Sequence record: NC_049823.1
Reading direction: 5' to 3' (one strand)
Source of the DNA: Escherichia phage herni
DNA: 50,971 bases
Positions 4,571-47,385 of the stretch are shown here, in pieces. Position numbers and translations under genes: made by a program. Numbering within the stretch: position 1 is the stretch's first letter; each line of letters begins with the position of its first letter. The notes beneath the pieces were generated by a model. The model worked only from the letters and a program-made list of their open reading frames with translations. It was not told the origin of the DNA and ran no database searches.

Positions 4571-4616
4571 ATAGCATTTTTTGTTAAACGATGATTTAAT
4601 GATTGTGTATTATACA
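4571..4616 (+). promoter_or_regulatory. conserved intergenic motif copy (ATAGCATTTTTTGTTAAA) plus ATTATA hexamer 22 nt downstream
   Basis: Matches the repeated motif; co-oriented with the helicase gene. Confidence 0.4.
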
Positions 4617-4646
4617 CACCAAATGGCATTACTCAAAGGTTTTAGA

Positions 4647-6686
4647 ATGATTCCAAACATTGAAAAGCAAATATCAGCACTTGGTGAAGCGGTAATTAAA
4701 TCCATTCAGGAGCGATTCACTGTTGGAGAGATTGTGCCTTACCCTTACCAGTGCGTTGCATACGCTGAGATCGCAAAGCGTATGAAAAATTATGAGCATC
4801 CATTCTTTGTTAAAGCGTCCGTATCGGCTGGCAAAACATTGATGTTTGCAATGGTTGCTCACCAGTGCCGGAAAATGGGCTTGAAAATGATGGTCCTTGC
4901 TCGCCAGGCTGAGATTGTGGATCAGGATTCTGAAGAGATAACAAATATTGGTGTGCCGAACTCCATCTATTGTGCAGGACTGAAGACAAAAAGCGCATAC
5001 TTTCCGATCGTTGTTGGTTCTGAGGGAACTGTAGTTAATGGACTGTTTAAAGCGCTTGGCGACTATGTTCCGCACGTTATCGGGATTGACGAGTGTCACC
5101 AGGTGGATTGGGAAGACCTTGCCGACGCAATAGAGAAAGACGAATCATTTTTACAAATGACGACGAAGAAAGGCGAAAAAGTACCAAATCCAGATTATGA
5201 CATAACGAGCGATAACGAATGCGAAGAGTTCCTGATTGGTGAGGATGGCTTACCAATGGAGGGAACAGGCCGCACGCAATACACTGTTATTATCATGGAA
5301 ATGATGCGACGTTGCAGGAAAGCATATGGTCATGAACTGCGCATCTTTGGTATGACTGGTTCGGAGTTTCGCGGAGTAGTCCCGATCCTAGTAGAAGACA
5401 AAAAACAGAAAGGATTCTGGCGTGAACAGGTTACTAATATTGACACCAACTACCTGATCAAATTCGGTTCTGTTGTGCCAACAAATTTTGGCGACGTTGG
5501 CGATCTAGGGTATGACCTTTCAGAGTTTGAGGCATCCAGCGAGGATGGCGTCGCAGACTTTGACGCTAAAACGCTTCGCAGGATGGAACAAAAAATTCAT
5601 GAAGAAGCGACCATGACAAAGCGCATCATGGCGAAAGTTCACGAGATCTGTAAAAACCGTAACGGCGTACTTGTGACATGTGCAGGAGAAAGGCATTGCA
5701 AAGAGGCAGCGGCGGCATTGCCACCTGGAACGACTTACAGGATCATTACTGGTAAGACTGGCGACAACCAGCGCAAGGAGTGGTTGAGGGAAGCATACGA
5801 AGGGAAGGTAAAATACATCTTCCAGGTTCAGGCGCTAACTACTGGCGTTAACGTGCCGTTTTGGGATACGTCTGTTATTCTGCGTAAGATTGGATCGCTA
5901 ACTTTGCTGATTCAGCTTTTAGGACGCGGAATGCGACTTCTTAAGAAATGGCATAAGGAACAAGGCTTCAAGAAAGATGATCACCTGGTTATGGATTTTT
6001 CAGGAACGATGGACGAGTTAGGTGAGCTTTATTTTGATCCGATACTGGAACAGGCGCAACATCAGAAGCGATTCAGGAACGGTAAAGATCCGAAGCCTTG
6101 TCCTGTTTGCGGAACTCTTAATAGCTATTATGCTCGTCGTTGTATGCACGTAGACGAAAACGGCAACAGATGCGAGTGGTTCTTTAAATTCAGGACATGT
6201 GATGATCAGATTGACACGCGCACTAAAAAGATTATTCAGCGCGGTTGTGGAACGAAAAATGATATTGCGGCCAGGGTATGCAGACATTGCGACATGTCAT
6301 TGATTGACCCTAACGAGAAGTTAAGCGGAAAGCACTACACAAAAAACGACTGGTTTCAGGTGCAATCTTTCTCGGTTGACATGACGAAAAACCAGAAAGG
6401 GATAATATTTAATTATGAGCTTTCCGATGGCATAGACACTTTCAGGGCGAGAGAGATATTTTTCCCTGAATCTGAGAGCCAAATTTGCCGCGCAAAATGG
6501 CGAAGCGTTGCTCTTAAGCACATACCAGATCGCCGTGTTGCTGGCATGGTGGCGAGCTATCGTAATGCACGTAAAATCATGCAATATGTGAATCACATCA
6601 TGCCACCATCGCGTGTAACTCACCGCAAGACTAGCAAGGGTGAAGATAATTTGTACAAGAAGGACTTTAATTATGGCAATGACTGA
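4647..6686 (+). CDS. superfamily 2 DNA helicase with C-terminal zinc-ribbon region
   Basis: Walker A SVSAGKT, DExH box IDECHQ, C-terminal CxxC pairs; start ambiguous (ATG 4623 with no Shine-Dalgarno, or ATG 4647 with AAAGG; track start TTG 4581 lies inside the upstream motif). Confidence 0.7.
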   Translation: MIPNIEKQISALGEAVIKSIQERFTVGEIVPYPYQCVAYAEIAKRMKNYEHPFFVKASVSAGKTLMFAMVAHQCRKMGLKMMVLARQAEIVDQDSEEITNIGVPNSIYCAGLKTKSAYFPIVVGSEGTVVNGLFKALGDYVPHVIGIDECHQVDWEDLADAIEKDESFLQMTTKKGEKVPNPDYDITSDNECEEFLIGEDGLPMEGTGRTQYTVIIMEMMRRCRKAYGHELRIFGMTGSEFRGVVPILVEDKKQKGFWREQVTNIDTNYLIKFGSVVPTNFGDVGDLGYDLSEFEASSEDGVADFDAKTLRRMEQKIHEEATMTKRIMAKVHEICKNRNGVLVTCAGERHCKEAAAALPPGTTYRIITGKTGDNQRKEWLREAYEGKVKYIFQVQALTTGVNVPFWDTSVILRKIGSLTLLIQLLGRGMRLLKKWHKEQGFKKDDHLVMDFSGTMDELGELYFDPILEQAQHQKRFRNGKDPKPCPVCGTLNSYYARRCMHVDENGNRCEWFFKFRTCDDQIDTRTKKIIQRGCGTKNDIAARVCRHCDMSLIDPNEKLSGKHYTKNDWFQVQSFSVDMTKNQKGIIFNYELSDGIDTFRAREIFFPESESQICRAKWRSVALKHIPDRRVAGMVASYRNARKIMQYVNHIMPPSRVTHRKTSKGEDNLYKKDFNYGND

Positions 6687-7092
6687 TAAAGGCGATTATC
6701 TGGAGTTTTACGAAAGAGATCCGACGGATACGCTAAAAGAGGAATCACACCAGATCGGGGCGTTTCAATGGTTGACTTATGCTTACCCTGAATTGCTGGC
6801 ATGGCATACGAAAAACGAGGGCGACAAGGGGATCGCCACCGCAATGATGGATCAGCAAGCCGGACTCGTTAAGGGCGTAAGTGATTTTATCATCCTGATT
6901 GGATTAAAAGGCCGTTATCCGTTTGCAGCAATTGAGATGAAGCGCGTCAATAAGTCTGGAAAGGGTAAGGCTTCACCAGTCAGTAAGGAGCAAAAAGCCT
7001 TCTTACGACGTGTGCGCGAGCTTGGCGGATTCGCTGCCGTAACATACGGATATAAGCAATTCATGATCGCTGTAGAATACATGATGAAATAG
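6673..7092 (+). CDS. VRR-NUC domain nuclease
   Basis: PD-(D/E)XK-like core GVSDFIIL...IEMK; start at MAMTDKG (AAGGA Shine-Dalgarno) overlaps the helicase stop. Confidence 0.55.
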   Translation: MAMTDKGDYLEFYERDPTDTLKEESHQIGAFQWLTYAYPELLAWHTKNEGDKGIATAMMDQQAGLVKGVSDFIILIGLKGRYPFAAIEMKRVNKSGKGKASPVSKEQKAFLRRVRELGGFAAVTYGYKQFMIAVEYMMK

Positions 7093-7132
7093 CACTTTTT
7101 GTTAAAACAGGCGCGAAGGATTGCGCCATAAT
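7087..7132 (+). promoter_or_regulatory. conserved intergenic motif AAATAGCACTTTTTGTTAAAAC, hairpin GGCGC-n8-GCGCC, CATAAT
   Basis: Motif contains the TAG stop of the upstream gene; ATAAT-like hexamer lies about 35 nt upstream of the Dam gene start. Confidence 0.45.
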
Positions 7133-7166
7133 AACACCAGTTCAACAAGCAACAGGTAATTAAGAA

Positions 7167-7868
7167 ATGATCAAAGAAACCGAAGTGACATTTGAACAAA
7201 TCGAACGAGAAACATTCATTGGCAATGCTCTTGCTACCGGAGGCTATTACCAGGCTGTTAAACCAAATCAATATTATAAAGTCACTGGCAACCGCTATAA
7301 CGGCAGCAATACGCCGGACGTTGTGCGAGATTTGTGGTCTACGCCGTCTGAGCTTGTCGCATGGATGGAAATCGAATACGGTGATTATGACATCGACGCT
7401 GCGGCAAGCAAAGAAAATGCTGTATGTGAAAAATTCTACAGCAAGGAAACAAATTGCTTAAAGCGTTGGTGGGGTAGTAATAAGCATATCTGGCTGAATC
7501 CACCGTACAGCAATATAACGCCTTTCGTTAAGAAAGCGATTGAGCAAATGGAGCACAATAACCAGATCGACATTCTGTTACCTTGCGACACATCGACAGG
7601 ATGGTTTTATGAGGCACAACAGAAAGCAGCGGAAATAATCTGGATCACTGGCGAAGTTTACCAGGAGGAAGGAATAGAATATTCCAGAACTGGACGGCTT
7701 GCTTTCACTTCAGCGCTTACAGGTAAACCAGTGCAGGGAAACAACAAAGGAAGCGTTATTTTCATCATGCGCGAACTTAAAGAAGGTGAGCAGCAGAAAA
7801 CTCGATACGTTAAGATCAGCGACATTTGCCCGTCAGTGGCAGAGCGTCGAGCAAGAAAGCGGAGTTAA
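7167..7868 (+). CDS. dam: phage Dam-type DNA N6-adenine methyltransferase
   Basis: WLNPPYS catalytic motif (NPPY) and overall phage Dam-family layout; AGGTAA Shine-Dalgarno. Confidence 0.75.
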   Translation: MIKETEVTFEQIERETFIGNALATGGYYQAVKPNQYYKVTGNRYNGSNTPDVVRDLWSTPSELVAWMEIEYGDYDIDAAASKENAVCEKFYSKETNCLKRWWGSNKHIWLNPPYSNITPFVKKAIEQMEHNNQIDILLPCDTSTGWFYEAQQKAAEIIWITGEVYQEEGIEYSRTGRLAFTSALTGKPVQGNNKGSVIFIMRELKEGEQQKTRYVKISDICPSVAERRARKRS

Positions 7869-7872: not shown

Positions 7873-8112
7873 ATGCAGAAAGAAAGAAGCGTTTATTTAA
7901 ATGAAACTGGAGAGTGGTTGTTATTTCGCGCTATGGTTTGCGAGGCGCTTGATAAAAACGAGTTCATAAAACCGCTATTAGGTTGTGATCCGTGGGAGTT
8001 TACAAGCGCGCTTGATATGAGCTTTGAGGAAACAAGAAAACTACCGCTTGAAAAATGGCATGAGCAGATCGGTAAAGACTTGCAAGAGTTTTACGAATCC
8101 GCGACAAAATAG
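7873..8112 (+). CDS. hypothetical protein (79 aa)
   Basis: ATG 7873 with GGAG Shine-Dalgarno; track ORF 7699 overlaps the Dam gene; stop embedded in the next motif copy. Confidence 0.5.
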   Translation: MQKERSVYLNETGEWLLFRAMVCEALDKNEFIKPLLGCDPWEFTSALDMSFEETRKLPLEKWHEQIGKDLQEFYESATK

Positions 8113-8155
8113 CACTTTTTGTTAAAAAGCCCGGCCCTGTGTCGGGCATAATTAT
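8107..8155 (+). promoter_or_regulatory. conserved intergenic motif, hairpin GCCCG-n9-CGGGC, ATAATT
   Basis: Motif copy; co-oriented with the gene at 8185. Confidence 0.45.
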
Positions 8156-8184
8156 TTCATCAAAACGAACAAGAGGAAAACAAA

Positions 8185-8364
8185 ATGGTTGTTTACGATC
8201 CACGCGCTTTTAAAATTGCTCAAGAAGTTTCACGCGAATCTGTTGCTGGCGGTTCGGTTAACGGCTATCAGTTTGATTGGTCGGCAGCAATGACCTTGCT
8301 TAAGGTTGCATATGGTCACGCGCCAATTGAAACAGCGGAGGCATATTATAAGCATGAAGGTTGA
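8185..8364 (+). CDS. hypothetical protein (59 aa)
   Basis: ATG with GAGGAAA Shine-Dalgarno; below the ORF-track size cut-off, found by reading. Confidence 0.4.
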   Translation: MVVYDPRAFKIAQEVSRESVAGGSVNGYQFDWSAAMTLLKVAYGHAPIETAEAYYKHEG

Positions 8365-8596
8365 ACAAGGTAGGCAGGCTGTATGGGATCACGCAAAGGA
8401 ATGTGGGATCTCTGAAGACATAGCCAGGATAGCAAAATATTTTGATATTGCTGACATAAGCATTATAAGCGGCGACAAAATGACTTTTCTCAATGAACGC
8501 CCGCGCAAGATGCATCGCGTCCCAGCAATACCAACAAAGATTGATTTCAAAGAGGCTATGGCGAAAATTCGCGAGCCGCGCAAATACTACAAATGA
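8354..8596 (+). CDS. hypothetical protein (80 aa)
   Basis: ATG 8354 (MKVEQGRQ...) preferred over the track start 8306, which would overlap the previous gene by about 60 nt. Confidence 0.45.
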   Translation: MKVEQGRQAVWDHAKECGISEDIARIAKYFDIADISIISGDKMTFLNERPRKMHRVPAIPTKIDFKEAMAKIREPRKYYK

Positions 8597-8682: not shown

Positions 8683-8694
8683 GGAGAATTTTTG

Positions 8695-11077: not shown

Positions 11078-11311
11078 TAGTGAATCCATCAAATCTTGAA
11101 AGCTGTTTCCGCTATAATCATTCTCTACAAGAATGTAAGCACCTTTCTTCTTTATATCCCATAACATTTCATTGTATTCGTAACGATTTATTTCAAACGT
11201 GCTGCCATCTTCTCTTGTCGCAGTTCCTTTGTCATTGAAAACATCAAAAGTTACATTGATGATTTTTGTCTCTTTCTTTGTTACTTTGATAGCCATTTTT
11301 AAAATCCTCAT
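11075..11311 (-). CDS. hypothetical protein (78 aa)
   Basis: ORF track; GAGGA Shine-Dalgarno upstream of ATG 11311. Confidence 0.5.
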   Translation of the reverse strand: MRILKMAIKVTKKETKIINVTFDVFNDKGTATREDGSTFEINRYEYNEMLWDIKKKGAYILVENDYSGNSFQDLMDSL

Positions 11312-11355
11312 ATTCGTTCCGATGAAACAAATATACCCGATACGAGATCGGGAGT

Positions 11356-11375
11356 TTTAACAAAAAGTGCTATTC
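11356..11375 (-). promoter_or_regulatory. conserved intergenic motif (minus orientation), hairpin, TATATT
   Basis: Reverse complement of AAATAGCACTTTTTGTTAAAA; contains the stop of the upstream minus gene. Confidence 0.4.
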
Positions 11376-11885: not shown

Positions 11886-13470
11886 TTACCCCAGCAATGT
11901 TGGATTTACAAAAACAACGCCATTAATCACACAAATATAATTTCTTTCTTCAAGCATCGGCAGCAGTTGCGTTTCCATACGCTTCATTACGCCAGCCTGG
12001 CCAACAAACGGCTTAACTTTTCGTGCAGCCTCATATATGGCGCGAACATTCAAGATCCCATTGTTAGCCTTACCGTGTCGAGTGATAATCTCGATTAGTT
12101 TACCCATTTCAGCATCATCACCAGCATAGCCAGAAGCGTTGGCGGAGCTAATGTATGTTTTGCTCAACTCGCTAAACATCAGCAGTGCTTCTTGAACGGT
12201 TTCAACTTCAATCTCTTTCGACTTCTGAGGGTATCCACCAGGATTAAACCAGTCGCGGATAGTGTGCAAAACCGAAGCAATCCTGATCACCTGCTTATCC
12301 ATTTTGCCAAGAGCACCGCGCAGCATTGTATGCGAATACTTTCCGCCATCAGCAAGGTGCGGCTCCATCTCCTGACGAGCCATGTTAAGAACTCGCATTG
12401 CGGATTTGCTGATCTTAAGCTGGATGTTTGATTCACTCATGATGTTATGGATCAGCTTAAAATATTGACTTTTCAGTTCTCCATCAACAGGCTCATAAGT
12501 AGAATCACCGTTATCATCAACAAACTTTCGACGACCTAAAAATGATTCCTCACGCACAAGCAAATAACGCTCACTCACACCGATACCGCGCGATCCTGCA
12601 TCCATGATGGCATTGATTGTTTCATCCTGGGCAATCACCGCCATACAGCCAAGAGCTTTAAAACTCATATTGTTGTCAGCGTTTGCACGAGCTATAGAAA
12701 CATGACCATGATCCCATGCTTTCAGCACAAGTTCGCTGTTGGTTTTACGTTCGCTATTAGCATATGTCAGACCTAAAAGGCTGTTAATACTCGTTGCCTC
12801 GTCTGAAATCACAGCAAAGTTACCCTGGCGATTGTTGATTCTTGCAAGTCCTTCCGGCGTGGTGTCGGACACAGGGAAAACAATGTCACACATCTTTTCC
12901 AATTTTTCTTCCAGATCTTCTTTCTCCTGGTACAGAGATTCCATATCAGCGCCGGAGCGCTCGCTTTTCATCTCTTTTGCAAGACCTGCCAACTTTGCCT
13001 GAATCTTTTTTCTTTCCTTCTTTCGCTGATCGTTAATTCTTTCCACTTCTGCAACCATTGGAGCAAGTGCCAGGCTGTTAACGGCAGATTTACCAGTTGA
13101 AGGAGGCTGACTTGTGACAACATAAAGAGCGGTCGGCTGATCCGTTCCGTGATACTCAACCGTGAAGCGTCCAAGCATTGCAGCAGACACGCAGCCGATA
13201 AAATGCATATATGCCGATGATTCAGGGAACTGAACTGAGCGAGCAATGTTGCGCGCCAACTTACCAACAACATCAACATCATTGCCAAGAGAAATTACAG
13301 GGTAGCGATCATTTCCGTTATTAACATCATTAACCTCACCCCAAAAGCTGGACGATTGACGGTATCCGTTTGCCTGAATGGACACGCGCACCGGAGACAA
13401 TCCTTGTGCATCAGCTAATTCGATAATTTGTTTTGGTGTTAGTTTGTTGGTTTCAAACGAAAAATTCATT
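11886..13470 (-). CDS. P-loop ATPase, DnaB/DUF3987-like (possible helicase or primase-associated)
   Basis: Walker A QPPSTGKSAV resembling the DnaB H1 motif, Walker B-like AVISDEA; start at MNFSFETNKL (ATG 13470, AAGGAG Shine-Dalgarno). Confidence 0.55.
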
Positions 13471-13524
13471 GATGATAACTCCTTTTTTTGATGCGGCAAT
13501 AATACCGCACCAATGCTACCCGCA

Positions 13525-13544
13525 TTTAACAAAAAATGCTATTT
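13525..13544 (-). promoter_or_regulatory. conserved intergenic motif (minus orientation)
   Basis: TTTAACAAAAAATGCTATTT; contains the TAG stop of the gene ending at 13539. Confidence 0.4.
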
Positions 13545-13760: not shown

Positions 13761-14143
13761 TTATACATAGCCTCAAATAAATGACAGCCACCAGCGGAAA
13801 ATCCTACTTCTTCGCGGTATAGCGTCCAGCGGTCGCCAGCTTCATCAAAAACATAACCAGCAACAGCACCAAGCGCGCGACCTTGCTCAATCTGGTAGCG
13901 CTTTCCTTCTTTGAAATGCTTTTTGCACGGGATCTTGTGATCTACAAATGTGCATTTAATTGTTTTTGTCTTGATATGACGATAGTCAGACTCAACAGCG
14001 TTTTGCCACTTGCTACCCTTTGTAATGCTCTTTACCTGGAATTGTTCCAACTCGATCACATCATCGCTACCAGCAATTTTTTCGTATACAGCTTTATAAC
14101 GACCGTTCATCAAAACGTTGGTTTTATTGCAGATAACTTTCAT
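13757..14143 (-). CDS. hypothetical protein (128 aa)
   Basis: ORF track; AAGGAGA Shine-Dalgarno upstream of ATG 14143. Confidence 0.5.
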   Translation of the reverse strand: MKVICNKTNVLMNGRYKAVYEKIAGSDDVIELEQFQVKSITKGSKWQNAVESDYRHIKTKTIKCTFVDHKIPCKKHFKEGKRYQIEQGRALGAVAGYVFDEAGDRWTLYREEVGFSAGGCHLFEAMYK

Positions 14144-14199
14144 CGTTTATTTCTCCTTTCGTTTCGGTGAAGTGATTATGCCAGGCTTTTACACCTGGC

Positions 14200-14220
14200 T
14201 TTTAACAAAAAGTGCTATTT
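14200..14220 (-). promoter_or_regulatory. conserved intergenic motif (minus orientation) with hairpin GCCAGG-n7-CCTGGC and ATAAT
   Basis: TTTTAACAAAAAGTGCTATTT; contains the stop of the methyltransferase gene. Confidence 0.45.
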
Positions 14221-15315: not shown

Positions 15316-15543
15316 TTAGATAGCCTTCCAACTTTCAATGAACATGCTGTTCTCTTCAAGAAGTTTAATCAATTCTTCGCGCGTATATTTGCGGATTTTA
15401 CTACCTGGATGCGAGCCAACAACAAACACACCTTTACCGCTCGTGATTGTTAACTGGTTGATTCCGCAAGATTTATCCATCTTAATGGCGACGCGGTGAT
15501 GTGCATCAACAGTGTGCATGATGTTAGTGATTTTGGCTTTCAT
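15316..15543 (-). CDS. hypothetical protein (75 aa)
   Basis: ORF track; GAGGAT Shine-Dalgarno. Confidence 0.5.
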   Translation of the reverse strand: MKAKITNIMHTVDAHHRVAIKMDKSCGINQLTITSGKGVFVVGSHPGSKIRKYTREELIKLLEENSMFIESWKAI

Positions 15544-15717
15544 TATGCAATCCTCATTATATTTGGTGTGGTAACTATATCAGGTTTGAGAAATATTGTT
15601 TAGCAATTTGTGCTATCAGTTGAAATAGCTATGGCGATTTGCTCGCTTTCCGTCTCCGCCATAATGATCATTAGAAACGGGAATCATCCAGGAATTATGA
15701 AATATTATTAGTCTCAT

Positions 15718-15999: not shown

Positions 16000-16193
16000 T
16001 ACACAACCTCCATAAAAGTATTGAATCCACGCAGTTTGAAAGCATTGCCATGTTTAACAACGTTCCATGTCAGGCCGGAGTGATACGCAACCATATCCTC
16101 AAGATCAATGGTGATGATAGCGCCTTTCTTAAAGATTCCTTTCTCGTGAGTGGTGTCACGCTGTACAACTTTAACATCAACTTGATTTTCCAT
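15999..16193 (-). CDS. hypothetical protein (64 aa)
   Basis: Start at MENQVDVK (ATG 16193, GAGGAT Shine-Dalgarno); the track start 16244 reads through the promoter-like motif. Confidence 0.45.
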   Translation of the reverse strand: MENQVDVKVVQRDTTHEKGIFKKGAIITIDLEDMVAYHSGLTWNVVKHGNAFKLRGFNTFMEVV

Positions 16194-16248
16194 CTTTAAA
16201 TCCTCGTTCGTTGTCGATGGATGTAATATACCATTCAGGCGCATAACG

Positions 16249-16269
16249 TTTTTAACAAAAAGTGCTATT
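16249..16269 (-). promoter_or_regulatory. conserved intergenic motif (minus orientation)
   Basis: TTTTTAACAAAAAGTGCTATT; contains the stop of the gene ending at 16265. Confidence 0.4.
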
Positions 16270-16555: not shown

Positions 16556-16697
16556 AGTCAACAACTCCAAATTCGTTAACAATTTGCGCCTTATAGAATC
16601 CGCCATTTTTCGCCAGGTTATAACATGCCGCTACAGTTTCAAATTCGCGCACTTCCGGCTGGCTGTTTTCGTGTTCCCAGGTAATCAGAGTAACCAT
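16545..16697 (-). CDS. hypothetical protein (50 aa)
   Basis: MVTLITWEHENSQPEV...; GAGGAT Shine-Dalgarno; not in track (below 60 aa). Confidence 0.35.
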   Translation of the reverse strand: MVTLITWEHENSQPEVREFETVAACYNLAKNGGFYKAQIVNEFGVVDYEF

Positions 16698-16755
16698 TTT
16701 CAAATCCTCGCATTCGTTATCGATGTGTGTAATGTACAGGAATACGAGGATTGAG

Positions 16756-16776
16756 TTTTAACAAAAAGTGCTATTT
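16756..16776 (-). promoter_or_regulatory. conserved intergenic motif (minus orientation)
   Basis: TTTTAACAAAAAGTGCTATTT; contains the stop of the gene ending at 16775. Confidence 0.4.
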
Positions 16777-17300: not shown

Positions 17301-17569
17301 TTCTTGATCTCCTCGGCAATAAACTTCAGGACTTTGCGCAAAAAAACTTCGTTGTTGATGGTTGCTGGCAATTCCTCTTTCACTTCTTGCGGCAGATAGA
17401 TATTGTCGTGCCAGGTTAAGCAATCGTAATTGATACGATAAGAGCAAAGCCACTCGCAATCGTTATCCGCTTCCCAAATGCAGAGTTGCAGAACATCGCC
17501 AAAATCCTCAACAGTCAGATCCAGACCGTGACGCTTTGCAAAGTTGAAAGTGGTTTTGCTGATGTTCAT
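17297..17569 (-). CDS. hypothetical protein (90 aa), first gene of the leftward early block
   Basis: ORF track; AGGAGA Shine-Dalgarno. Confidence 0.5.
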   Translation of the reverse strand: MNISKTTFNFAKRHGLDLTVEDFGDVLQLCIWEADNDCEWLCSYRINYDCLTWHDNIYLPQEVKEELPATINNEVFLRKVLKFIAEEIKK

Positions 17570-17631
17570 TGCTATCTCCTGATGGGTATCTCGTTTCGAT
17601 GTGTCTAATGTACCCGATCAGGGCAATTCAG

Positions 17632-17652
17632 TTTTAACAAAAAGTGCTATTT
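17632..17652 (-). promoter_or_regulatory. conserved intergenic motif (minus orientation) heading the leftward block
   Basis: TTTTAACAAAAAGTGCTATTT about 60 nt upstream of the gene starting at 17569. Confidence 0.45.
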
Positions 17653-18239: not shown

Positions 18240-18268
18240 TTGACATGCAGGAAAGGCAAGGCAATAAT
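18240..18268 (+). promoter_or_regulatory. sigma70-like promoter (TTGACA, 17 nt, AATAAT)
   Basis: Near-consensus -35 and spacer length about 37 nt upstream of the gene at 18305. Confidence 0.5.
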
Positions 18269-18790: not shown

Positions 18791-19043
18791 GGCATTAATT
18801 GGAGTTTTGATTGCAATTGCTACCCTGACCGGATGCGAAAAGGCATCTGAATCAACAGTTGTCGTAGGAGTGGAGTCAGATTTTAAAGTCGATCGCCTGT
18901 TTACTGTTGATGGATGCACTGCGTACCGATTCTATGACAACGGTCGAGCAATCTATTACACCAATTGTAAGGGAGCAACGGATAGCACATACCGCAGCGG
19001 CAAAAACGTAATGCACCAACAAGTCACAACAGATATGAAATAG
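18783..19043 (+). CDS. lipoprotein (86 aa)
   Basis: Signal peptide plus lipobox LTGC; stop embedded in the next motif copy. Confidence 0.6.
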   Translation: MNKALIGVLIAIATLTGCEKASESTVVVGVESDFKVDRLFTVDGCTAYRFYDNGRAIYYTNCKGATDSTYRSGKNVMHQQVTTDMK

Positions 19044-19085
19044 CACTTTTTGTTAAAATGCCAGGTGCGAATCCTGGCATAATAG
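19038..19085 (+). promoter_or_regulatory. conserved intergenic motif, hairpin GCCAGG-n7-CCTGGC, CATAAT
   Basis: Motif copy co-oriented with the gene at 19116. Confidence 0.45.
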
Positions 19086-19115
19086 CCTCATTGAAACGAG
19101 ATTGAGGAAAACAAA

Positions 19116-19301
19116 ATGGCACGTCGCATCACCAAAGACCTTAAAGTTCTTAACAAAGAAAACGTAGTTAAAATCCTGGTTGTCTGGGGATACAACGAAG
19201 AAACAGCAAAGCAGAAGGTAGAGGCAGGTTATGACCTGACTGTAAAAGCAATGCCAAACGACGACGCCAAAGGCATTGCAAACTATGTGGCTTTCTTTTA
19301 A
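19116..19301 (+). CDS. hypothetical protein (61 aa)
   Basis: ORF track; GAGGAAA Shine-Dalgarno. Confidence 0.5.
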   Translation: MARRITKDLKVLNKENVVKILVVWGYNEETAKQKVEAGYDLTVKAMPNDDAKGIANYVAFF

Positions 19302-19502: not shown

Positions 19503-19548
19503 ATAGCATTTTTTGTTAAAACTCAAAAACGATAACCAGGCATAATAA
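19501..19548 (+). promoter_or_regulatory. conserved intergenic motif AAATAGCATTTTTTGTTAAAAC with ATAATA downstream
   Basis: Motif copy co-oriented with the gene at 19601. Confidence 0.45.
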
Positions 19549-19600
19549 ATCACATAGGGCGGCACGGCGTCGCCCACAAAACCAATCAGGAGAAAGCACC

Positions 19601-20548
19601 ATGTTAAAACTTGCTGACATTAAATTCCCGATCACCTTCGAATCTCGCGGCGTTGGTCATTTCATGTTTACCGACGAGAATACATGCACTAAGTTTAACG
19701 AATACGGAAATCCAGACGCTTCAACAATGGAGATTGAACACTTCATTGATGCGCATAACAAGCATTACAATTCGCTAAAAGACTACGGCTATGCAATGCC
19801 AGGATACACCTGTTTTCACTACAAGCAATATAAAGGCCAGGTGTTACCAATGCGCGCACAGGACATTGCGAGCGCTGCGACTTATGCGCGGGCAATTCAC
19901 GCGCCAGAGAATGCAGAGCCACTAGTAAAAATGCACGCCTGCGACTACAAAAAATTGTGGTGCTTAAGTGTGGATAACATCAAGTATCCGATCGTATTCC
20001 GCACGGTTGGTAACTCAACGATTCGCTATACGTCACCAGACAACGGCGTTTATAGCGATGGTACGAAATCAGAGTTGAAAGTTGATTTCTTTGTCAATGG
20101 TCACAACAAATTCAATCCACACAATGAAGAAGATAAGGTGTACTACGTGGAAGACATTACAAAACACTTGTTTGGGGAAACACCATTCGGCGGCGGAAAA
20201 ACGTCAATTCAAAAAATCATTGGCGATGAGATCCACAAGGCAGCCGTTGAAATGAAAGCGCCTGGAGGCTGTAAGATTGATAAAAGCGACCTTATCACCA
20301 TTCGTTCAAAGATTGGCGGAGTTGAATACGAGGGAAAAATTGAAAAAATGCCGCTCGGCGCTTCAATCATCGGCATCAAAGACGACAACGGCGATTGGCA
20401 TGATGTTTCTTTCCCGATCAAGCGTATCGAAGTGCTAGACGACTTGATTTGCCTCCTGGCGCATCATGGCAGCTATAAGAACAATCCGTTCTCCGCAGAG
20501 CTAAACATTAAGCGCGGAACGATGGTTAAGTGGAAGGTGAAAGTGTAA
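19601..20548 (+). CDS. hypothetical protein (315 aa)
   Basis: ORF track; AGGAGA Shine-Dalgarno; no family recognised. Confidence 0.6.
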   Translation: MLKLADIKFPITFESRGVGHFMFTDENTCTKFNEYGNPDASTMEIEHFIDAHNKHYNSLKDYGYAMPGYTCFHYKQYKGQVLPMRAQDIASAATYARAIHAPENAEPLVKMHACDYKKLWCLSVDNIKYPIVFRTVGNSTIRYTSPDNGVYSDGTKSELKVDFFVNGHNKFNPHNEEDKVYYVEDITKHLFGETPFGGGKTSIQKIIGDEIHKAAVEMKAPGGCKIDKSDLITIRSKIGGVEYEGKIEKMPLGASIIGIKDDNGDWHDVSFPIKRIEVLDDLICLLAHHGSYKNNPFSAELNIKRGTMVKWKVKV

Positions 20549-20592
20549 ATAGCACGAATTGTTAAAACTCAAATGTGGGGCCAAGTATAATG
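20547..20592 (+). promoter_or_regulatory. conserved intergenic motif variant AAATAGCACGAATTGTTAAAAC with TATAAT
   Basis: Motif copy; TATAAT 21 nt after TTGTTA. Confidence 0.45.
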
Positions 20593-20621
20593 GCCTCACT
20601 TTCAACGAAGGAGATAAAACT

Positions 20622-20852
20622 ATGTACATTAACAAGAAGATGAAATGCATTTCCGTTAACTATGGTTGCTCTGGCATGTTCAAGCCTGGCGAAATCTATA
20701 TGGCGCAAAAGTTGAAATCATCAACCGGATCTTTTTGCGTGAGCAATAGTAAGGGGAATCGCATGTTCCTGAACGGTGGCGAGGGAACTAAGGTTATGGC
20801 ACACGCTATGGTAATTGCTGAATTTGAAGAGGTGAAAGATGGAAACAAATAA
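20622..20852 (+). CDS. hypothetical protein (76 aa)
   Basis: Start at MYINKK with AAGGAGA Shine-Dalgarno; the track start 20559 reads through the motif. Confidence 0.5.
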   Translation: MYINKKMKCISVNYGCSGMFKPGEIYMAQKLKSSTGSFCVSNSKGNRMFLNGGEGTKVMAHAMVIAEFEEVKDGNK

Positions 20853-21071: not shown

Positions 21072-21785
21072 ATGAAAAAATACGAATTTGAACTTTGGGG
21101 CAGCAAATACCATTTTTCCACGAGCAAGCCGATTGTTATCGTTGACCTGGACGGAACGTTATCAGACGGAACGCATCGCTTGCACCTGCTTCCGACAGAA
21201 GATTTGCACCTTACAGAAAGCTGGTCTGAGTTCAATAAGGCGGCTGTTGGCGATTCGCCGATTAAGAGCACGGTTGCAGTGGTTAACGGTTTGTGGATGT
21301 CTGGATTTGCCATCGTTATCCTGACCGGACGCAGCGATGAAGTGATGGAGGACACCTGCAAATGGCTTAACGAAAACGGCATCAAGTACGATGCGTTAAT
21401 CATGCGCCGCAAGGAAGACAACCGCAAAGACACAATCATCAAAGAAGAAGTCTTGCGCGCTATCGGACTGGAAAACATTGTGTGCGCTTTTGATGATTCG
21501 CCGAACGTGGTTAAGCACTTCCGCAGCCTGGGAATCACAACCTATCAGGTCACGGAATACGACAAGCCACATAGTCACATCCAATCGCACGGCGTTGAAG
21601 CAATCAAGATCACGAAGCGCGCCCGATTCGTTGGCAGCAAAGACAGCCTTGTGAATTCCAGCTTTACTAGAGGAATAACCTATGACGTTGTTTCTTATCA
21701 TGACAAGAGCTTTATAGTTCATGATGATTCTGGATGCGCCTGGTCATTCGATCATAGTGACGGCGATTTTGTTAATGCTGAATAG
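21072..21785 (+). CDS. HAD-superfamily phosphatase (Pnk-phosphatase or nucleotidase-like)
   Basis: HAD motif I VIVDLDGTLSD near N-terminus; start at MKKYEF (ATG 21072), the track start 21057 is TTG. Confidence 0.55.
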   Translation: MKKYEFELWGSKYHFSTSKPIVIVDLDGTLSDGTHRLHLLPTEDLHLTESWSEFNKAAVGDSPIKSTVAVVNGLWMSGFAIVILTGRSDEVMEDTCKWLNENGIKYDALIMRRKEDNRKDTIIKEEVLRAIGLENIVCAFDDSPNVVKHFRSLGITTYQVTEYDKPHSHIQSHGVEAIKITKRARFVGSKDSLVNSSFTRGITYDVVSYHDKSFIVHDDSGCAWSFDHSDGDFVNAE

Positions 21786-21826
21786 CACTTTTTGCAAAAA
21801 CAGATTATCGGGCTTGCGGTATAGTA
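21781..21826 (+). promoter_or_regulatory. conserved intergenic motif variant AATAGCACTTTTTGCAAAAAC, hairpin CGGGCTT-n10-AAGCCC
   Basis: Motif copy containing the upstream stop. Confidence 0.4.
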
Positions 21827-21856
21827 AGCCCATCGACAACAAACGAGGATTAAATC

Positions 21857-22120
21857 ATGGCTAACAAGATCGAGTTTTTTAAAGCGGTAGACAAGATTGA
21901 TGGCGCGTCAAGTTTCTTTGCTATCCAGTCAATTGACGGTGAGGATATTGGGCACAACGTTATCCTTAGCGATGGAGGATTAGAACTTAGTGACTTGGTA
22001 GGTCGAGTTGTGTCATACGGTAAATGTTTACACCCAGATTCGAAACTAGAGCCGCGACGCAGCGACATGCAAAATCCAGTTCTGCTTTACACTCTGGTAA
22101 TTGAAGGAGTCAACAAATGA
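21857..22120 (+). CDS. hypothetical protein (87 aa)
   Basis: ORF track; GAGGAT Shine-Dalgarno. Confidence 0.5.
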   Translation: MANKIEFFKAVDKIDGASSFFAIQSIDGEDIGHNVILSDGGLELSDLVGRVVSYGKCLHPDSKLEPRRSDMQNPVLLYTLVIEGVNK

Positions 22121-22496: not shown

Positions 22497-23087
22497 ATGA
22501 AGCGAGACATTATCATCCTTAACGGACCGCCAGGAGTTGGCAAGGATACGCTTGCGGCATACTTAACGGGACATCGTTACGCAGCCGTTAAAGCGTCGTT
22601 TAAACAGCCTATGTTTGATATTGCATTCTCCATGCTTGGCGTTTACCGATATGACGAGTTCATTGATCTGTATAACGACCGCGAGCAGAAAGAAAAGCCT
22701 CAAGCAATCTTGCAAGGCAAGTCGCCTCGCCAGTTCATGATCTGGATTAGCGAAGAAATTATGAAGCCAGCTTTTGGCGAGCAATATTTCGGAAATCGCA
22801 TGGTTGAGCAAGTACACGAGATGTACAGGGATTTAGCTGTTGTAATTAGTGATGGTGGATTCCCTGAAGAAATCAAGCCGCTCGTTAAGGCAGGCCATGA
22901 AGTTCACATTTGCCGACTGCATCGCGAGGGATTCACGTTTGATGGAGATTCGCGAAACTATATTGACCTGAGCGGATACCATCACCGCGTCAAGCATTAC
23001 GACTTCACAATGATTGATGGCGATCCGGAAAAGACTGTTAACGAGATCATTAAATCGGTCCAGTGGAAACACATTAAAATCGAATAG
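22497..23087 (+). CDS. P-loop kinase, deoxynucleoside monophosphate kinase-like
   Basis: Walker A ILNGPPGVGKDT (GKDT as in phage dNMP kinases); start at MKRDII with GGAGA Shine-Dalgarno. Confidence 0.55.
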   Translation: MKRDIIILNGPPGVGKDTLAAYLTGHRYAAVKASFKQPMFDIAFSMLGVYRYDEFIDLYNDREQKEKPQAILQGKSPRQFMIWISEEIMKPAFGEQYFGNRMVEQVHEMYRDLAVVISDGGFPEEIKPLVKAGHEVHICRLHREGFTFDGDSRNYIDLSGYHHRVKHYDFTMIDGDPEKTVNEIIKSVQWKHIKIE

Positions 23088-23130
23088 CACGAATTGCTAA
23101 ACTCGTGGCGCAATGCCTCGCTATAATGCA
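23086..23130 (+). promoter_or_regulatory. conserved intergenic motif variant AATAGCACGAATTGCTAAAC with TATAAT
   Basis: Motif copy containing the TAG stop of the kinase gene. Confidence 0.45.
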
Positions 23131-23158
23131 AACACCAATCAACGAGAGGGCTTGAAAC

Positions 23159-23560
23159 ATGTTAGAACTTAAAGACATTCGCGTTGGAACAAAATTTCGC
23201 GTAACCTGGGCAGATGAATATTGCGGAGTTAGTAAGGGCCAGGTTGTTACGGTGGATAGTATTTATCGCGGGTGCAGCAAAGACTTTCGCCGACCACGCA
23301 TCAAGAATGGCTATATCATAACTCGCCGTCTTGGATTTGATCATTATTGCGTAGTGGCTACTCAAGGAGTTTTGATTGAGCTTGAGCGAATAAGCGATCA
23401 TCGCGGCTGTCATGTTAAGACAATGAAAATACCATTTCAGCGAGCGCGATACGATGCGCGACGTATGCGCAGACTTGCGCGAAATGCGATCAAGTTCAAA
23501 AAGCCTGATAATGTTCTTTACGGCATGTACAAGGGGATTGCGCGAAATGCTGGGAAATAA
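23159..23560 (+). CDS. hypothetical protein (133 aa, basic C-terminus)
   Basis: ORF track; GAGAGG Shine-Dalgarno. Confidence 0.5.
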   Translation: MLELKDIRVGTKFRVTWADEYCGVSKGQVVTVDSIYRGCSKDFRRPRIKNGYIITRRLGFDHYCVVATQGVLIELERISDHRGCHVKTMKIPFQRARYDARRMRRLARNAIKFKKPDNVLYGMYKGIARNAGK

Positions 23561-24142: not shown

Positions 24143-24430
24143 ATGTCTAAAAGCAATCGTAAAATGTTGATTAACGCATTCGAAAAGGCAGCGCTTGAGC
24201 GTGGTTGGAATGACTCATTTCATACAGCAAACTGTATCAGACGTTACGGATTCAAGAATTGCCGCTCATGGGCGCGTGAAATGGCTTCATGGTATGATTT
24301 TGATGCTCATTACCTTGATATGGATTGCGCCCTTGTAGAAATGATTGAGCAGGCAGCGCTAGAGGATCGACCATTAACGCAATCTGATTTTGACGATTTT
24401 GTGCGCGATGAAATTTATTATATGAGCTAA
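24143..24430 (+). CDS. hypothetical protein (95 aa)
   Basis: Start at MSKSNRK with AAGGAGGA Shine-Dalgarno. Confidence 0.5.
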   Translation: MSKSNRKMLINAFEKAALERGWNDSFHTANCIRRYGFKNCRSWAREMASWYDFDAHYLDMDCALVEMIEQAALEDRPLTQSDFDDFVRDEIYYMS

Positions 24431-24475
24431 TAGCACTTTTTGTTAAAACTTCCGCGAGGGCATTTGTTAAAGTGT
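24429..24475 (+). promoter_or_regulatory. conserved intergenic motif AATAGCACTTTTTGTTAAAAC with hairpin
   Basis: Motif copy containing the TAA stop of the upstream gene. Confidence 0.45.
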
Positions 24476-24505
24476 CCTCATTGAAGCGAAACAGAGGAAA
24501 TCAAA

Positions 24506-24718
24506 ATGAAAATTCGAATCACCAGGGTTGACATTGACCGCAACGACGGAAGCATTACCATTGAGCAATGCGGGTTTAAAGTTGGTGACATTGTAGATGT
24601 TGACGGATTCTTTCGCGATGGTTCTTACTGCGTGTTGGCAATCCGCAACACGGAAGAAATTCGAATCGGTGATAACATCGGCGTAAACCATGACGAATGC
24701 GAGGTAGTAGAAGAATGA
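24506..24718 (+). CDS. hypothetical protein (70 aa)
   Basis: ORF track; AGAGGAAA Shine-Dalgarno. Confidence 0.5.
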   Translation: MKIRITRVDIDRNDGSITIEQCGFKVGDIVDVDGFFRDGSYCVLAIRNTEEIRIGDNIGVNHDECEVVEE

Positions 24719-28686: not shown

Positions 28687-28700
28687 CACGAATCGACAAA
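28681..28700 (+). promoter_or_regulatory. conserved intergenic motif variant AAATAGCACGAATCGACAAA (no hairpin, terminator follows)
   Basis: Motif copy containing the TAG stop of terL. Confidence 0.35.
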
Positions 28701-28715
28701 CCAATATATAATCAA

Positions 28716-32920: not shown

Positions 32921-32939
32921 CACAAAATTATGTTGCACG

Positions 32940-32957
32940 TTTAACAAAAAATGCTAT
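32940..32957 (-). promoter_or_regulatory. conserved intergenic motif in inverted orientation relative to the downstream capsid gene
   Basis: TTTAACAAAAAATGCTAT on the plus strand. Confidence 0.35.
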
Positions 32958-36636: not shown

Positions 36637-36660
36637 AGGGGCGTTGCGCCCCTTTTTTTG
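36637..36660 (+). terminator. rho-independent terminator
   Basis: GGGGCG-tt-GCGCCCC followed by TTTTTTTGTT. Confidence 0.65.
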
Positions 36661-36698
36661 TTACTGTACAATCATGCTACACGATTCATAATCAATTC

Positions 36699-36717
36699 TT
36701 TTAACAAAAAGTGCTAT
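36699..36717 (-). promoter_or_regulatory. conserved intergenic motif in inverted orientation, directly upstream of the tail chaperone gene
   Basis: TTTTAACAAAAAGTGCTAT on the plus strand, ending 13 nt before the ATG. Confidence 0.35.
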
Positions 36718-42563: not shown

Positions 42564-42590
42564 AGTCGCGCGTTGCGCGGCTTTTTTTTT
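42564..42590 (+). terminator. rho-independent terminator
   Basis: GC-rich hairpin followed by nine T. Confidence 0.6.
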
Positions 42591-42635
42591 GCCCGTATAA
42601 TTCAACAAATCAAATAGCACAAAAGGTGAAAAAGC

Positions 42636-46410: not shown

Positions 46411-46411
46411 A

Positions 46412-47053
46412 ATGGCTGAATATGGAGCAATGTTATCTTTATCAAATGGGAATCCATTTATCACACCAAAATCAACGCCATTTTGCTTATATGGCAAGTA
46501 CACTTATTCATCTTCTGGCACTTCTGCCTATCATAGCGCAAGCGCAAATATACCATTGAATCAATCTTATCCATGTATGGCATTTATAAAAACAACAAAC
46601 ACACAGCAGCCAACTGCATTAATAGCTTACAGGAATGGTGGCAACATTTATGTAAACGGAGGCAATCCATACGGGCAATCATTTACAATGACTGTTTATA
46701 TATTTGCCATATTCCCTCAAACTCTACCCAAATATGGTATGGCTATATGGGATGCAAGCGGCAAGTTGGTTTTAACTAATGAAAGCAGGGTGCTAACAGA
46801 TCTTGTTACAATTGGTACTCCTGGTTCTTCAGGTGGAACGAATATAGATCAAACGTTATCTGGTTCTTATGCCGTTTGCCCTTCAAGGCTTGGTGCGGTT
46901 GTAGGCATGGGTGCTTCTGACATATATACATCATGCAGGTATGATGGTTCAAGCACAAGGATAGGTGCAGCAAGGACAACGCCAGGAACAGGATCTATAA
47001 CAAATAACGGAAATTCAATAATTGCAATAAGGACTGATATTTACGACCAATGA
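46412..47053 (+). CDS. hypothetical Ser/Thr/Gly-rich protein (213 aa), MAEYG paralogue 2
   Basis: Start at MAEYGAMLSL; internal YGMAIWDASGKL resembles the N-terminus of the previous gene. Confidence 0.5.
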   Translation: MAEYGAMLSLSNGNPFITPKSTPFCLYGKYTYSSSGTSAYHSASANIPLNQSYPCMAFIKTTNTQQPTALIAYRNGGNIYVNGGNPYGQSFTMTVYIFAIFPQTLPKYGMAIWDASGKLVLTNESRVLTDLVTIGTPGSSGGTNIDQTLSGSYAVCPSRLGAVVGMGASDIYTSCRYDGSSTRIGAARTTPGTGSITNNGNSIIAIRTDIYDQ

Positions 47054-47082
47054 AAAAGGGGCTTTCGCCCCTTTATTTTTAT
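47053..47082. terminator. bidirectional rho-independent terminator between convergent genes
   Basis: GGGGC-tttc-GCCCC flanked by an A-run upstream and a T-run downstream. Confidence 0.6.
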
Positions 47083-47310
47083 TTACATACTGCAATCAGC
47101 GTTTTTAAAGTTATCAATACTTACCCACTGAAAATTAAACGGATAGCCAGCCTTAACAAGAGTGCGGTCGCCAACTCGTTTTACTCCAAAAATAGCAACT
47201 GAATACTGCATACCGCTATTTTCATAAATAGCCGTGCATTCACGCTTAGGCATATTTGCGCAACCAGTCAGGGTTGCGGCTGCAATCAAAACGGCGATTA
47301 ATTTTTTCAT
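47083..47310 (-). CDS. small outer-membrane lipoprotein, possibly Cor-like superinfection exclusion protein
   Basis: 75 aa; signal peptide with lipobox LTGC; size and position next to tail genes as for Cor-type proteins; functional assignment is inference. Confidence 0.45.
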   Translation of the reverse strand: MKKLIAVLIAAATLTGCANMPKRECTAIYENSGMQYSVAIFGVKRVGDRTLVKAGYPFNFQWVSIDNFKNADCSM

Positions 47311-47366
47311 CTTGGTATCTCCTTAGTTGTTGTTGGTTGCAACTATACACGATCTTGCGGCGGTCG

Positions 47367-47385
47367 TTTAGCAAAAAGTGCTATT
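47367..47385 (-). promoter_or_regulatory. conserved intergenic motif (minus orientation) upstream of the lipoprotein gene
   Basis: TTTAGCAAAAAGTGCTATT. Confidence 0.4.

Follow-up and report, generated by a model that had tools for sequence, protein, structure and literature searches.

The window studied here is the whole 50,971-nucleotide sequence of Escherichia phage herni (NC_049823.1), the genome of a T1-like siphovirus that belongs to the Drexlerviridae and stands near the genus Hanrivervirus. Over 20 kb it shares 96–98% identity with Salmonella phage slyngel, Escherichia phage egaa and Shigella phage pSf-1. Early genes are organized in two divergent blocks, leftward and rightward, and a 21-bp repeat, the element under study, marks the junctions between many of them. 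About 20 copies of the repeat had been noticed in the original prediction, and the count is borne out. When up to 3 mismatches are tolerated, the 21-mer occurs 16 times in the window, as against 0.02 expected from dinucleotide shuffles, and 23 sites are found with the variant pattern ATAGCAC-N3-TTG-N-TAAA (at most 2 changes, with the published centre variants TTT, GAA and AAA, and both TTGC and TTGT, permitted). Presence in related phages was checked by the same pattern search, which returns about 20 copies each in T1, TLS and Rtp, representatives of three subfamilies. The coordinates first given were correct to 1–2 nt, with the exception of the supposed degenerate copy near 47781, which is a canonical sigma70 promoter (TTGACT-16-TAAAAT, 47755–47782) for recE. 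Copies at 15616(-) and 42614(+) are degenerate, the latter being half a motif; those at 4100(-) and 48874(+), and the antisense late-region copies at 32957(-) and 36717(-), had been overlooked. Orientation is shared with the downstream gene, as had been proposed, in 19 copies.

The repeat itself is already known, having been published in 2024; its identification as a marbox, predicted below from sequence, is new. The re-annotation of phage TLS (PMC11447400) describes a 21-nt direct repeat of consensus aaATAGCACnnnTTGnTAAAA at 21 places, located about 76 nt upstream of start codons along the direction of transcription, and sorted into TTT, GAA and AAA subgroups. Similar repeats were pointed out in Rogue1, T1 and Rtp. 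The options discussed there were a stoperator, a site for an enhancer-binding protein and a UP element, and no function was assigned. TLS repeats DR1–DR18 correspond to the window motif in consensus, placement and A/T/G subgroups. No link to a downstream -10, a hairpin or a marbox is drawn in PMC11447400; that link is made here. Literature searches by sequence, by T1-like transcriptomics and by marbox plus phage returned nothing relevant besides the TLS paper, and as far as searchable no paper connects the repeats of the T1 family with the marbox. Just three sigma70-like promoters were found in TLS (PMC11447400), and all have equivalents in the window, at 18240–18268(+), 4636–4609(-) and 47755–47782(+). 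These three canonical promoters serve the first early gene, a Cro-like regulator gene and recE, respectively; scans for canonical promoters return fewer sites in the window than in shuffles.

By sequence, the motif would be the upstream half of about 19 compact predicted promoter cassettes, each measuring about 95 bp (Table 1), and its location at junctions delimiting single genes, also put forward originally, is supported. A good copy comes with the stop codon of the upstream gene, then the motif (20 bp), a spacer of 18 bp, the -10 hexamer of a sigma70 promoter, 6 nt, A(+1)TCGAAACGA, and finally a Shine-Dalgarno sequence ahead of the start codon. The upstream stop is indeed frequently built into the motif. 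In 71 modules from four genomes, 29 open frames end at the TAG of ATAGCAC, 18 at most 7 nt before the motif and 9 at a stop deeper inside it, for a total of 56 modules. The gene carrying a VRR-NUC domain, for example, ends at the TAG at 7090–7092, inside the marbox at 7089–7108. The -10-like hexamer, also seen at first reading, is found exactly 20 nt after TAAA (22 after TTGyTA) in 62 of the 77 modules that have a good hexamer, and 19–21 nt after TAAA in 73 of the 77. Its consensus is TAtAaT; -11A and -7T are invariant in 64 aligned modules (four genomes), both positions being part of the selection filter. G-14 is present in 52 of the 64 (81%), and an A located 7 nt past the hexamer and preceded by C, taken as +1, in 55. 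The leader predicted from this start reads ATCGAAACGA after A+1, followed by GAGGA and the start codon. The tract (c)ATCGAAACGA at +1 to +12 is conserved across modules and phages, with 0.2–0.7 bit per position after A+1 (for example 8159–8170 and 17600–17589); the conservation could denote a leader function or shared descent of the cassettes.

Relative to the inferred start, the 21-bp motif spans -52 to -32, and the usual -35 position (-35 to -30) reads AAAAcn. TTGyTA is 22 bp away from the -10, too far for sigma70, as had been remarked, and no -35 is found at 16–18 bp. Whatever reads the upstream element, it therefore cannot be sigma region 4 at its ordinary position.

Table 1. Predicted marbox cassettes, marbox-like copies and canonical promoters in the window
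Feature	Coordinates	Strand	Marbox	-10 hexamer and hairpin	Inferred +1	Start codon	Remarks
Primase marbox promoter within true terminator	4027..4100	-	4100-4081	TATCAT 4062-4057		4027	
Helicase-gene marbox promoter	4571..4649	+	4571-4590 (ATAGCATTTTTTGTTAAACG, 13/14)	TATTAT 4608-4613	~4620	ATG 4647	
Sigma70 promoter of Cro/YdaS-like regulator gene (4084-4557)	4609..4636	-		TTGAGT-16-TATAAT			equivalent to TLS P57
Dam-gene cassette	7089..7169	+	7089-7108	CATAAT 7127-7132; hairpin GGCGC/GCGCC 7112-7127	~7139	ATG 7167	
Cassette	8109..8187	+	8109-8128	8147-8152; hairpin GCCCGG/CGGGC 8129-8147	~8159	ATG 8185	flagged terminator-like
Cassette	11309..11373	-	11373-11354	TATATT 11335-11330; hairpin CCCGAT/ATCGGG	~11323	ATG 11311	breakpoint 11368
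Second-helicase-gene cassette	13467..13542	-	13542-13523	TATTAT 13504-13499, in hairpin loop (GCGG/CCGC)	~13492	ATG ~13469	
Cassette	14141..14218	-	14218-14199	CATAAT 14180-14175; hairpin GCCAGG/CCTGGC	~14168	ATG 14143	
Cassette	15541..15616	-	15616-15597 (ATAGCACAAATTGCTAAACA, 14/14)	TATAGT 15579-15574		ATG 15543	
Cassette	16191..16268	-	16268-16249	TATATT 16230-16225	~16218	ATG 16193	breakpoint 16269
Cassette	16695..16774	-	16774-16755	TACATT 16736-16731	~16724	ATG 16697	breakpoint 16694
First cassette, leftward early block	17567..17650	-	17650-17631	TACATT 17612-17607	~17600	ATG 17569	
Sigma70 promoter, start of rightward early block	18240..18268	+		TTGACA-17-AATAAT			not a motif copy; equivalent to TLS P01
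Cassette	19040..19118	+	19040-19059	CATAAT 19078-19083; hairpin GCCAGG/CCTGGC	~19090	ATG 19116	breakpoint 19037
Cassette	19503..19603	+	19503-19522	19541-19546		ATG 19601	
Cassette, GAA variant	20549..20624	+	20549-20568	TATAAT 20586-20591, in hairpin loop (GGGGCC/GGCCTC)		ATG 20622	breakpoints 20539/20546
Cassette	21782..21859	+	21782-21801	TATAGT 21820-21825, in loop of GGGCTT/AAGCCC		ATG 21857	
Cassette	23084..23161	+	23084-23103 (14/14)	TATAAT 23122-23127		ATG 23159	
Cassette	24430..24508	+	24430-24449	TAAAGT 24468-24473, in loop of GAGGGCA/TGTCCTC (one G.U pair)		ATG 24506	
Orphan marbox-like copy at stop of large terminase gene	28683..28702	+		no class II -10 at right distance			terminator after the copy
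Optimal marbox, antisense, just upstream of major capsid gene (33004)	32938..32957	-	32957-32938	poor -10			conserved: T1 15086(-), TLS 15042(-)
Optimal marbox, antisense, between major tail and chaperone genes	36698..36717	-	36717-36698	-10-like TAGCAT at 18 nt			T1 equivalent 18850(-)
Half motif (ATAGCAC only), leader of J-like tail gene	42614..42633	+				ATG 42636	after terminator and lone TATAAT; not a class II promoter; conserved T1 25021, TLS 24908
Cassette, 75-aa gene (47083-47310)	47308..47384	-	47384-47365 (14/14)	TATAGT 47347-47342		ATG 47310	
Cassette between recE and next gene	48874..48957	+	48874-48893 (ACAGCACAAATAGCTAAACA, 14/14)	TATAAT 48911-48916		ATG 48955	

The short hairpin that had been reported to follow most copies is confirmed statistically. 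The mean minimum free energy of the -32 to +1 segment is -9.3 kcal/mol, versus -3.6 in shuffles and -4.7 in chimeras made by joining halves of different modules (standard deviation of the control means about 0.27). Two layouts occur: in the first the stem lies inside the spacer, just before the -10; in the second the loop contains the -10 hexamer, with a 5' arm located in the spacer and a 3' arm located in the discriminator. Sequences of the hairpins differ among modules, and pairing is kept. Sense RNA is more stable than antisense RNA in 50 of 71 modules, the reverse being true in 10 (p = 3e-8), and G.U pairs make up 49 of 413 hairpin pairs; selection therefore acts on sense-strand RNA, in transcripts reading through from the upstream gene, and not on an antisense RNA. 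A T-rich stretch follows hairpins of the first layout only (5.4 T per 12 nt, versus 2.6). The junction has no free positions besides the spacer of 18 bp and the discriminator of 6 nt, and these carry a hairpin which most likely attenuates or ends the read-through transcript, or protects its 3' end, making the junction a compact terminator-promoter; attenuation is probable, as in the promoter-stem-loop cassettes of T4-type phages. A DNA cruciform shortening the spacer was discarded: the loss of base pairs would be far too large, and both the sense-strand bias and the G.T pairs favour RNA. Termination of antisense transcription fits only the hairpins beside the TTTTAAC side (for example 7127(-)); the majority have the 3' arm after the -10.

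The hairpin, which works at the RNA level, lends some colour to the idea that the motif is not a promoter part, but a repressive or roadblock site of the stoperator type, or a signal by which polycistronic RNA is processed or stabilized. Like the L5 stoperators to which the TLS authors refer (PMC11447400), the sites lie between genes, are asymmetric and point along transcription, and several late-region copies (32957-, 28683+, 42614+) have no good -10. The fixed 18-bp gap to a well-conserved -10, with A at +1, in 19 copies nevertheless argues for a promoter; the phage is virulent, no repressor is known, and no complementarity or structure was noticed in the motif itself. We regard this explanation as having very little chance of being correct.

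The sequence of the motif corresponds to a site known from the host. The marbox (or soxbox), recognized by MarA, SoxS and Rob, stress-response activators of the AraC type that act as monomers, and by RamA in Klebsiella and Salmonella, is an asymmetric 20-bp site with the consensus AYnGCACnnWnnRYYAAAYn (PMC2064960, PMC3709825). Nineteen window copies agree with it at 13 or 14 of its 14 specified positions. A search for this consensus at a threshold of at least 13/14 finds 20 sites in the window, 19 of them copies of the motif noticed originally, where shuffles give 1.55; the same scan finds 21 sites in T1, 21 in TLS and 16 in Rtp, versus about 1.1 in shuffles. Positions variable in the phages are those degenerate in the consensus: position 10, a W, and position 14, a Y (C in 30, T in 32). 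A second comparison used a matrix derived only from 73 Salmonella MarA/SoxS/Rob/RamA sites, obtained by chromatin immunoprecipitation and sequencing (ChIP-seq) and listed in a part of Table 1 of PMC10268841, to which the results that follow refer. The matrix consensus, GCACAAATTGCTAAA, is identical to the window copy at 15613(-), the 15-bp core of the marbox at 15616–15597. Of the 73 real sites, 58–73 have lower scores than the phage variants, and 23 matches above the 75th percentile of the real sites are found in the window, versus 0.81 in shuffles. Some phage copies have exactly the sequence of a ChIP site, in one case GCATTTTTTGCTAAA and in another GCACTTTTTGCAAAA; the second, a RamA/SoxS site of Salmonella, is the core of the marbox at 21782–21801. 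The marbox of the mar operon, ATGCCACGTTTTGCTAAATC (reverse strand), has 16 of 20 bases in common with the phage consensus. In sequence, orientation, spacing and lack of a -35, the repeats are best classed as predicted class II marbox promoters built into terminator-promoter cassettes.

Spacing agrees as well. Class II marboxes are in forward orientation and overlap the -35 (PMC12052159), that of micF being centred near -41 (PMC8811837), and class II promoters lack a -35 (PMC10268841). In the structure of Rob and RNA polymerase at micF, one Rob molecule touches sigma region 4 and the alpha C-terminal domain (alpha-CTD), and holds region 4 off the -35 (PMC9178005). The E. coli K-12 micF promoter is made of the marbox ACAGCACTGAATGTCAAAAC, 18 nt, TAGAAT, 7 nt and the first micF base; the 18-bp distance is that of the phage modules, in which the marbox lies at -50 to -31 from the inferred start, is in forward orientation, and is separated by 18 bp from the -10 in about 80% of cases. 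The suggestion of a phage-specific promoter or factor-binding module is consequently retained in part: the cassettes look like factor-binding promoter modules without a canonical -35/-10, and they do not look phage-specific, the sequence being that of an optimal host marbox set in class II geometry. On these grounds the cassettes are probably early or middle promoters assisted by host Rob, MarA or SoxS, with a fair margin left for error. An activator bound at -50 to -31 would take the place of -35 recognition and hold RNA polymerase via sigma70 region 4 and the alpha-CTD; about 19 such promoters would drive the early and replication genes of this T1-like phage.

Other types of sites were compared with the motif. 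Sigma54 promoters feature TGGCAC-N5-TTGC with strict -24/-12 spacing. The phage motif reads TAGCAC-N3-TTGy, with A in place of the first G (the GG is missing) and spacing 2 nt short. A stoperator of the L5 type was ruled out by the fixed distance to the -10, and no repressor or integrase context was seen among the window proteins examined. Consensus sequences of IHF, Fis, DnaA, CRP and cII fit poorly. The Lrp consensus YAGHAWATTWTDCTR matches at 11–13 of 15 positions, leaves the invariant flanks uncovered, and Lrp acts without a fixed class II geometry. UP elements are A/T-rich alpha-CTD sites, found at -59 to -38 upstream of a -35 hexamer; invariant G/C positions, the -52 to -32 span and the lack of a -35 ruled them out.

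On another reading, host RNA polymerase reads the motif directly and unaided by any further protein, as an unusual upstream or UP-like element in which TTGyTA is a displaced -35 and which boosts extended -10 promoters. The TTG at -40 to -38 is invariant and resembles the beginning of a -35 hexamer, a T-tract and an A-tract are present in the motif, and G-14 in 81% of the modules fits an extended -10. The 22-bp gap between TTGyTA and the -10 is however beyond the working range of sigma70, and UP elements consist of A/T only at -59 to -38, whereas G-47, C-46, C-44 and G-38 are invariant here in an element reaching from -52 to -32. UP elements are among the options of the TLS authors (PMC11447400), but direct reading by polymerase leaves the match to the ChIP-defined marboxes unexplained, and we consider it improbable.

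If the repeat is a marbox, its reader is likely a host protein, since no AraC-type protein was detected in the phage: none was found in the six-frame open reading frames of the window, T1, TLS and Rtp (phmmer, with MarA and gp49 of Pantoea phage AAM37 as queries), nor by Pfam in 19 window proteins. Rob is the obvious candidate, being constitutively abundant and so available at any time, with a further contribution from MarA and SoxS to be expected under stress. According to PMC10268841, Rob binds more tightly than MarA and SoxS, but is largely aggregated without inducers. A MarA-type reader finds support in the Pantoea myovirus AAM37 (Dibbivirus), which has about 10 cassettes with the same motif, spacing and hairpins. 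Its gp49 is a MarA-sized protein of the AraC family (136 amino acids) that lacks a ligand domain (HTH_18, E 1.8e-14; E 8e-8 in a phmmer comparison with MarA), and homologues of gp49 are confined to the genus Dibbivirus.

Several points weigh against assistance by Rob, MarA or SoxS. The DNA-contacting residues of MarA, read from the sequences, are mostly not conserved in gp49, so that gp49 lends no more than support to a MarA-type reader. In unstressed cells MarA and SoxS are scarce, and Rob is for the most part aggregated under standard conditions, as reported in PMC10268841. Ordinary broth nevertheless allows T1-like phages to grow well. Dependence on non-essential host regulators would give the host an easy escape, and we know of no resistance mutants of that kind. 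Conservation of G-14 suggests an extended -10, with which the promoters might work without an activator; it may also only reflect the hairpin arm. As to the hairpins, 37 of 50 have no following U-tract and 13 of 50 are followed by a T-rich stretch; most are thus not standard intrinsic terminators. The searchable literature holds no transcript-end, binding or host-mutant data for any T1-like phage. Finally, a reader encoded by the phage itself may exist: the Cro-like regulator and an 80-amino-acid protein (8306–8596, phrog_2817) are the sole small non-structural proteins common to all five motif-bearing phages compared, i.e. the window, T1, TLS, Rtp and AAM37.

The last point bears on the proposal, made originally, that the motif is bound by one of two phage helix-turn-helix proteins. 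Both are poor candidates. The open reading frame 8692–9810 encodes a DNA-repair exonuclease (phrog_704, E 6e-151). The product of 4084–4557 is the Cro/YdaS-like regulator (Pfam YdaS/P22_Cro, phrog_2856; T1 gp23 family), which, as a class II activator in dimeric form, could bind the imperfect palindrome TAGCA-N5-TGCTA with its centre at -42, fire about 19 delayed-early promoters and shut its own divergent promoter. Such a role would agree with conservation of the regulator in 841 phage records and in all motif-bearing phages compared, AAM37 included, with its promoter being one of only three canonical ones, and with a motif copy in its leader and a -10 overlapping that of the helicase gene, in a classic switch layout; a centre at -42 is compatible with dimeric class II activators. 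Yet the predicted recognition helix varies (SQQTVNQW in the window, SNQTVQGW in T1, NLKTVWGW in TLS, TPQAVEEW in Rtp, PFSGVRSW in AAM37), while the motif is identical in all. The palindrome is weak, with 4–5 of 7 symmetric positions (p about 0.07 by chance), and the motif is used in a single orientation at a fixed distance. Identity with the host marbox optimum is, moreover, left unexplained. The regulator is therefore an unlikely reader, if somewhat less so than RNA polymerase itself, and recognition of the cassettes by host Rob, MarA or SoxS is preferred.

The regulator locus is laid out as a switch region. Between 4557 and 4650 the regulator promoter (minus strand) and the helicase marbox promoter (plus strand) are set face to face, and share nearly the same -10 bases (4608–4614). 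The marbox at 4571–4590 falls at about +12 to +31 of the regulator transcript. With a marbox in the regulator leader and common -10 bases, marbox occupancy should favour the helicase and block the regulator. On the other side of the regulator gene, between it and the primase gene, the copy at 4100(-) has its -10 in the loop of GCCTG...CAGGC, followed by TTTTTTT; the arrangement is conserved at T1 35995(-), an annotated terminator, and at TLS 35240(-) (T57). About 20 records labelled "Campylobacter phage" are near-identical to this group of E. coli and Shigella phages, with a regulator protein 100% identical, which suggests that they are mislabelled or contaminant. The divergent early blocks are separated by about 600 bp of non-coding, A/T-rich DNA (17650–18240) with TATATATA runs and GTGGTG repeats, which may be an origin or packaging region.

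Late-region copies differ in setting. Optimal or half marboxes opposing the flanking late genes are found in the window at 32938–32957(-), 36698–36717(-) and 3036–3055(+), in T1 at 15086(-), 18850(-) and 34902(+), in TLS at 15042(-) and in Rtp at 33762(+). They adjoin terminators just upstream of the genes for the major capsid protein, the tape-measure chaperone and the tail fibre, and their conservation extends over several subfamilies. The T1 34902 copy lies at about +1 to +20 of a tail-fibre promoter (TTGCAA-17-TAAAAT), a repressing position. A transcript predicted from 36717(-) would be an RNA of about 45 nt running into a bidirectional terminator at about 36630–36655. Class I (reverse marbox) activation of the major capsid promoter by the copy at 32957(-) was rejected, the distances being unsuitable. 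Fronts of late genes (J-like tail gene and terS; window 42570–42640, T1 25021 and 8362, TLS 24908) feature a terminator, a lone TATAAT-like hexamer, the ATAGCAC half motif in the leader and the start codon, in that order; the arrangement is conserved, and it is distinct from a class II promoter.

Exchange of genes at motif boundaries, suggested in the original prediction, is supported by comparison with phages JakobBernoulli, damhaus and BEK7: of 27 distinct homology breakpoints, 7 lie within modules, whose share of the region is about 9%. Support for cassette exchange is moderate, given the small sample and the common ancestry of these relatives. The gene between the modules at 16268 and 16774 is replaced in relatives, and in some relatives a different spacer precedes the same gene; differing spacers point to crossovers inside the module, as judged from sequence. 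The module is also found in a few copies in RB43-like phages of the T4 type. A 61-amino-acid gene (19317–19499) upstream of the module at 19503 is homologous to RB43 ORF014 (RB43 19628–19852; E 1e-14), which is also located just upstream of a module, and the sequences point to transfer of a gene-plus-module cassette between phage families. Since every junction has about 95 bp of similar sequence, and two reading frames meet a stop codon in the motif, the cassettes would also serve as gene-exchange sites.

The question addressed is how T1, a classic coliphage, times its genes without a polymerase or a sigma factor of its own. Reading the repeats as class II marboxes turns a gap in the TLS re-annotation into a testable question on the switching on of early genes. 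A bolder extension is that T1-family phages run nearly the whole early and replication programme through host Rob, MarA, SoxS and RamA, with no activator of their own, that infection is tuned by bile, antibiotics and oxidants, and that about 20 optimal marboxes per replicating genome form a sink draining the mar/sox/rob regulon; we hold it as a tentative possibility, more doubtful than not. Were the marbox reading itself confirmed, a virus would plug about 20 promoters into the host regulon best known for multidrug resistance, and phage success would be tied to bile, salicylate, oxidants and antibiotic exposure, which would be relevant to the use of Drexlerviridae in phage therapy against E. 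coli and Klebsiella. Mobile terminator-promoter cassettes in the promoter-stem-loop style would also reach beyond T4-type phages.

The cassettes have features in common with several known systems. Stoperators of mycobacteriophage L5 are likewise many asymmetric, oriented, intergenic copies of a single protein-binding site. They are repressor sites of a temperate phage and have no fixed relation to a -10, unlike the window motif, which is at a fixed distance from the -10 in a virulent phage. T4 middle promoters (MotA box, AsiA) also combine a sigma70 -10 with an upstream box whose activator replaces -35 recognition. The MotA box is centred at -30, has another sequence and needs two phage proteins; position, sequence and protein requirement do not apply to the window cassettes. 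Class II host promoters of the micF type feature the same asymmetric 20-bp marbox, with GCAC and YAAA elements 7 nt apart, in forward orientation, overlapping the -35 and 18 bp from the -10. Host marboxes are however few and degenerate, whereas about 20 near-optimal, almost invariant copies are carried by a 51-kb virus. The phage cassettes conserve a leader, and also a hairpin placed in the spacer or the discriminator, both missing from micF, and, unlike host promoters, they have an upstream stop codon built into the marbox; binding and activation are predicted here from sequence.

Resemblance to the promoter-stem-loop cassettes (PeSLs) of T4-type phages, which the original prediction had evoked, is close in the placement of the stem-loop, the enrichment of breakpoints in modules and the cassette shared with RB43. 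PeSLs have the stem-loop in the -35/-10 interval or over the -10, and cut downstream expression like a strong terminator (PMC2839356). Their terminator and promoter activities have been measured, whereas those of the window cassettes are predicted from sequence. PeSL promoters have consensus -35 and -10 hexamers plus an A/T-rich upstream region; in the window cassettes the marbox is found in place of the -35. The window cassettes have the PeSL layout: each is a conserved unit that reaches from the stop of one gene to the start of the next, and its stem-loop lies within the promoter or covers it. Like PeSLs of RB49 and phi1 (PMC2839356, PMC4122927), they combine a strong early promoter, predicted in the window, with a stem-loop located between the upstream element and the -10, or over the -10. 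Both precede small genes of unknown function. Recombination at PeSLs shuffles genes, as it probably does at the window cassettes.

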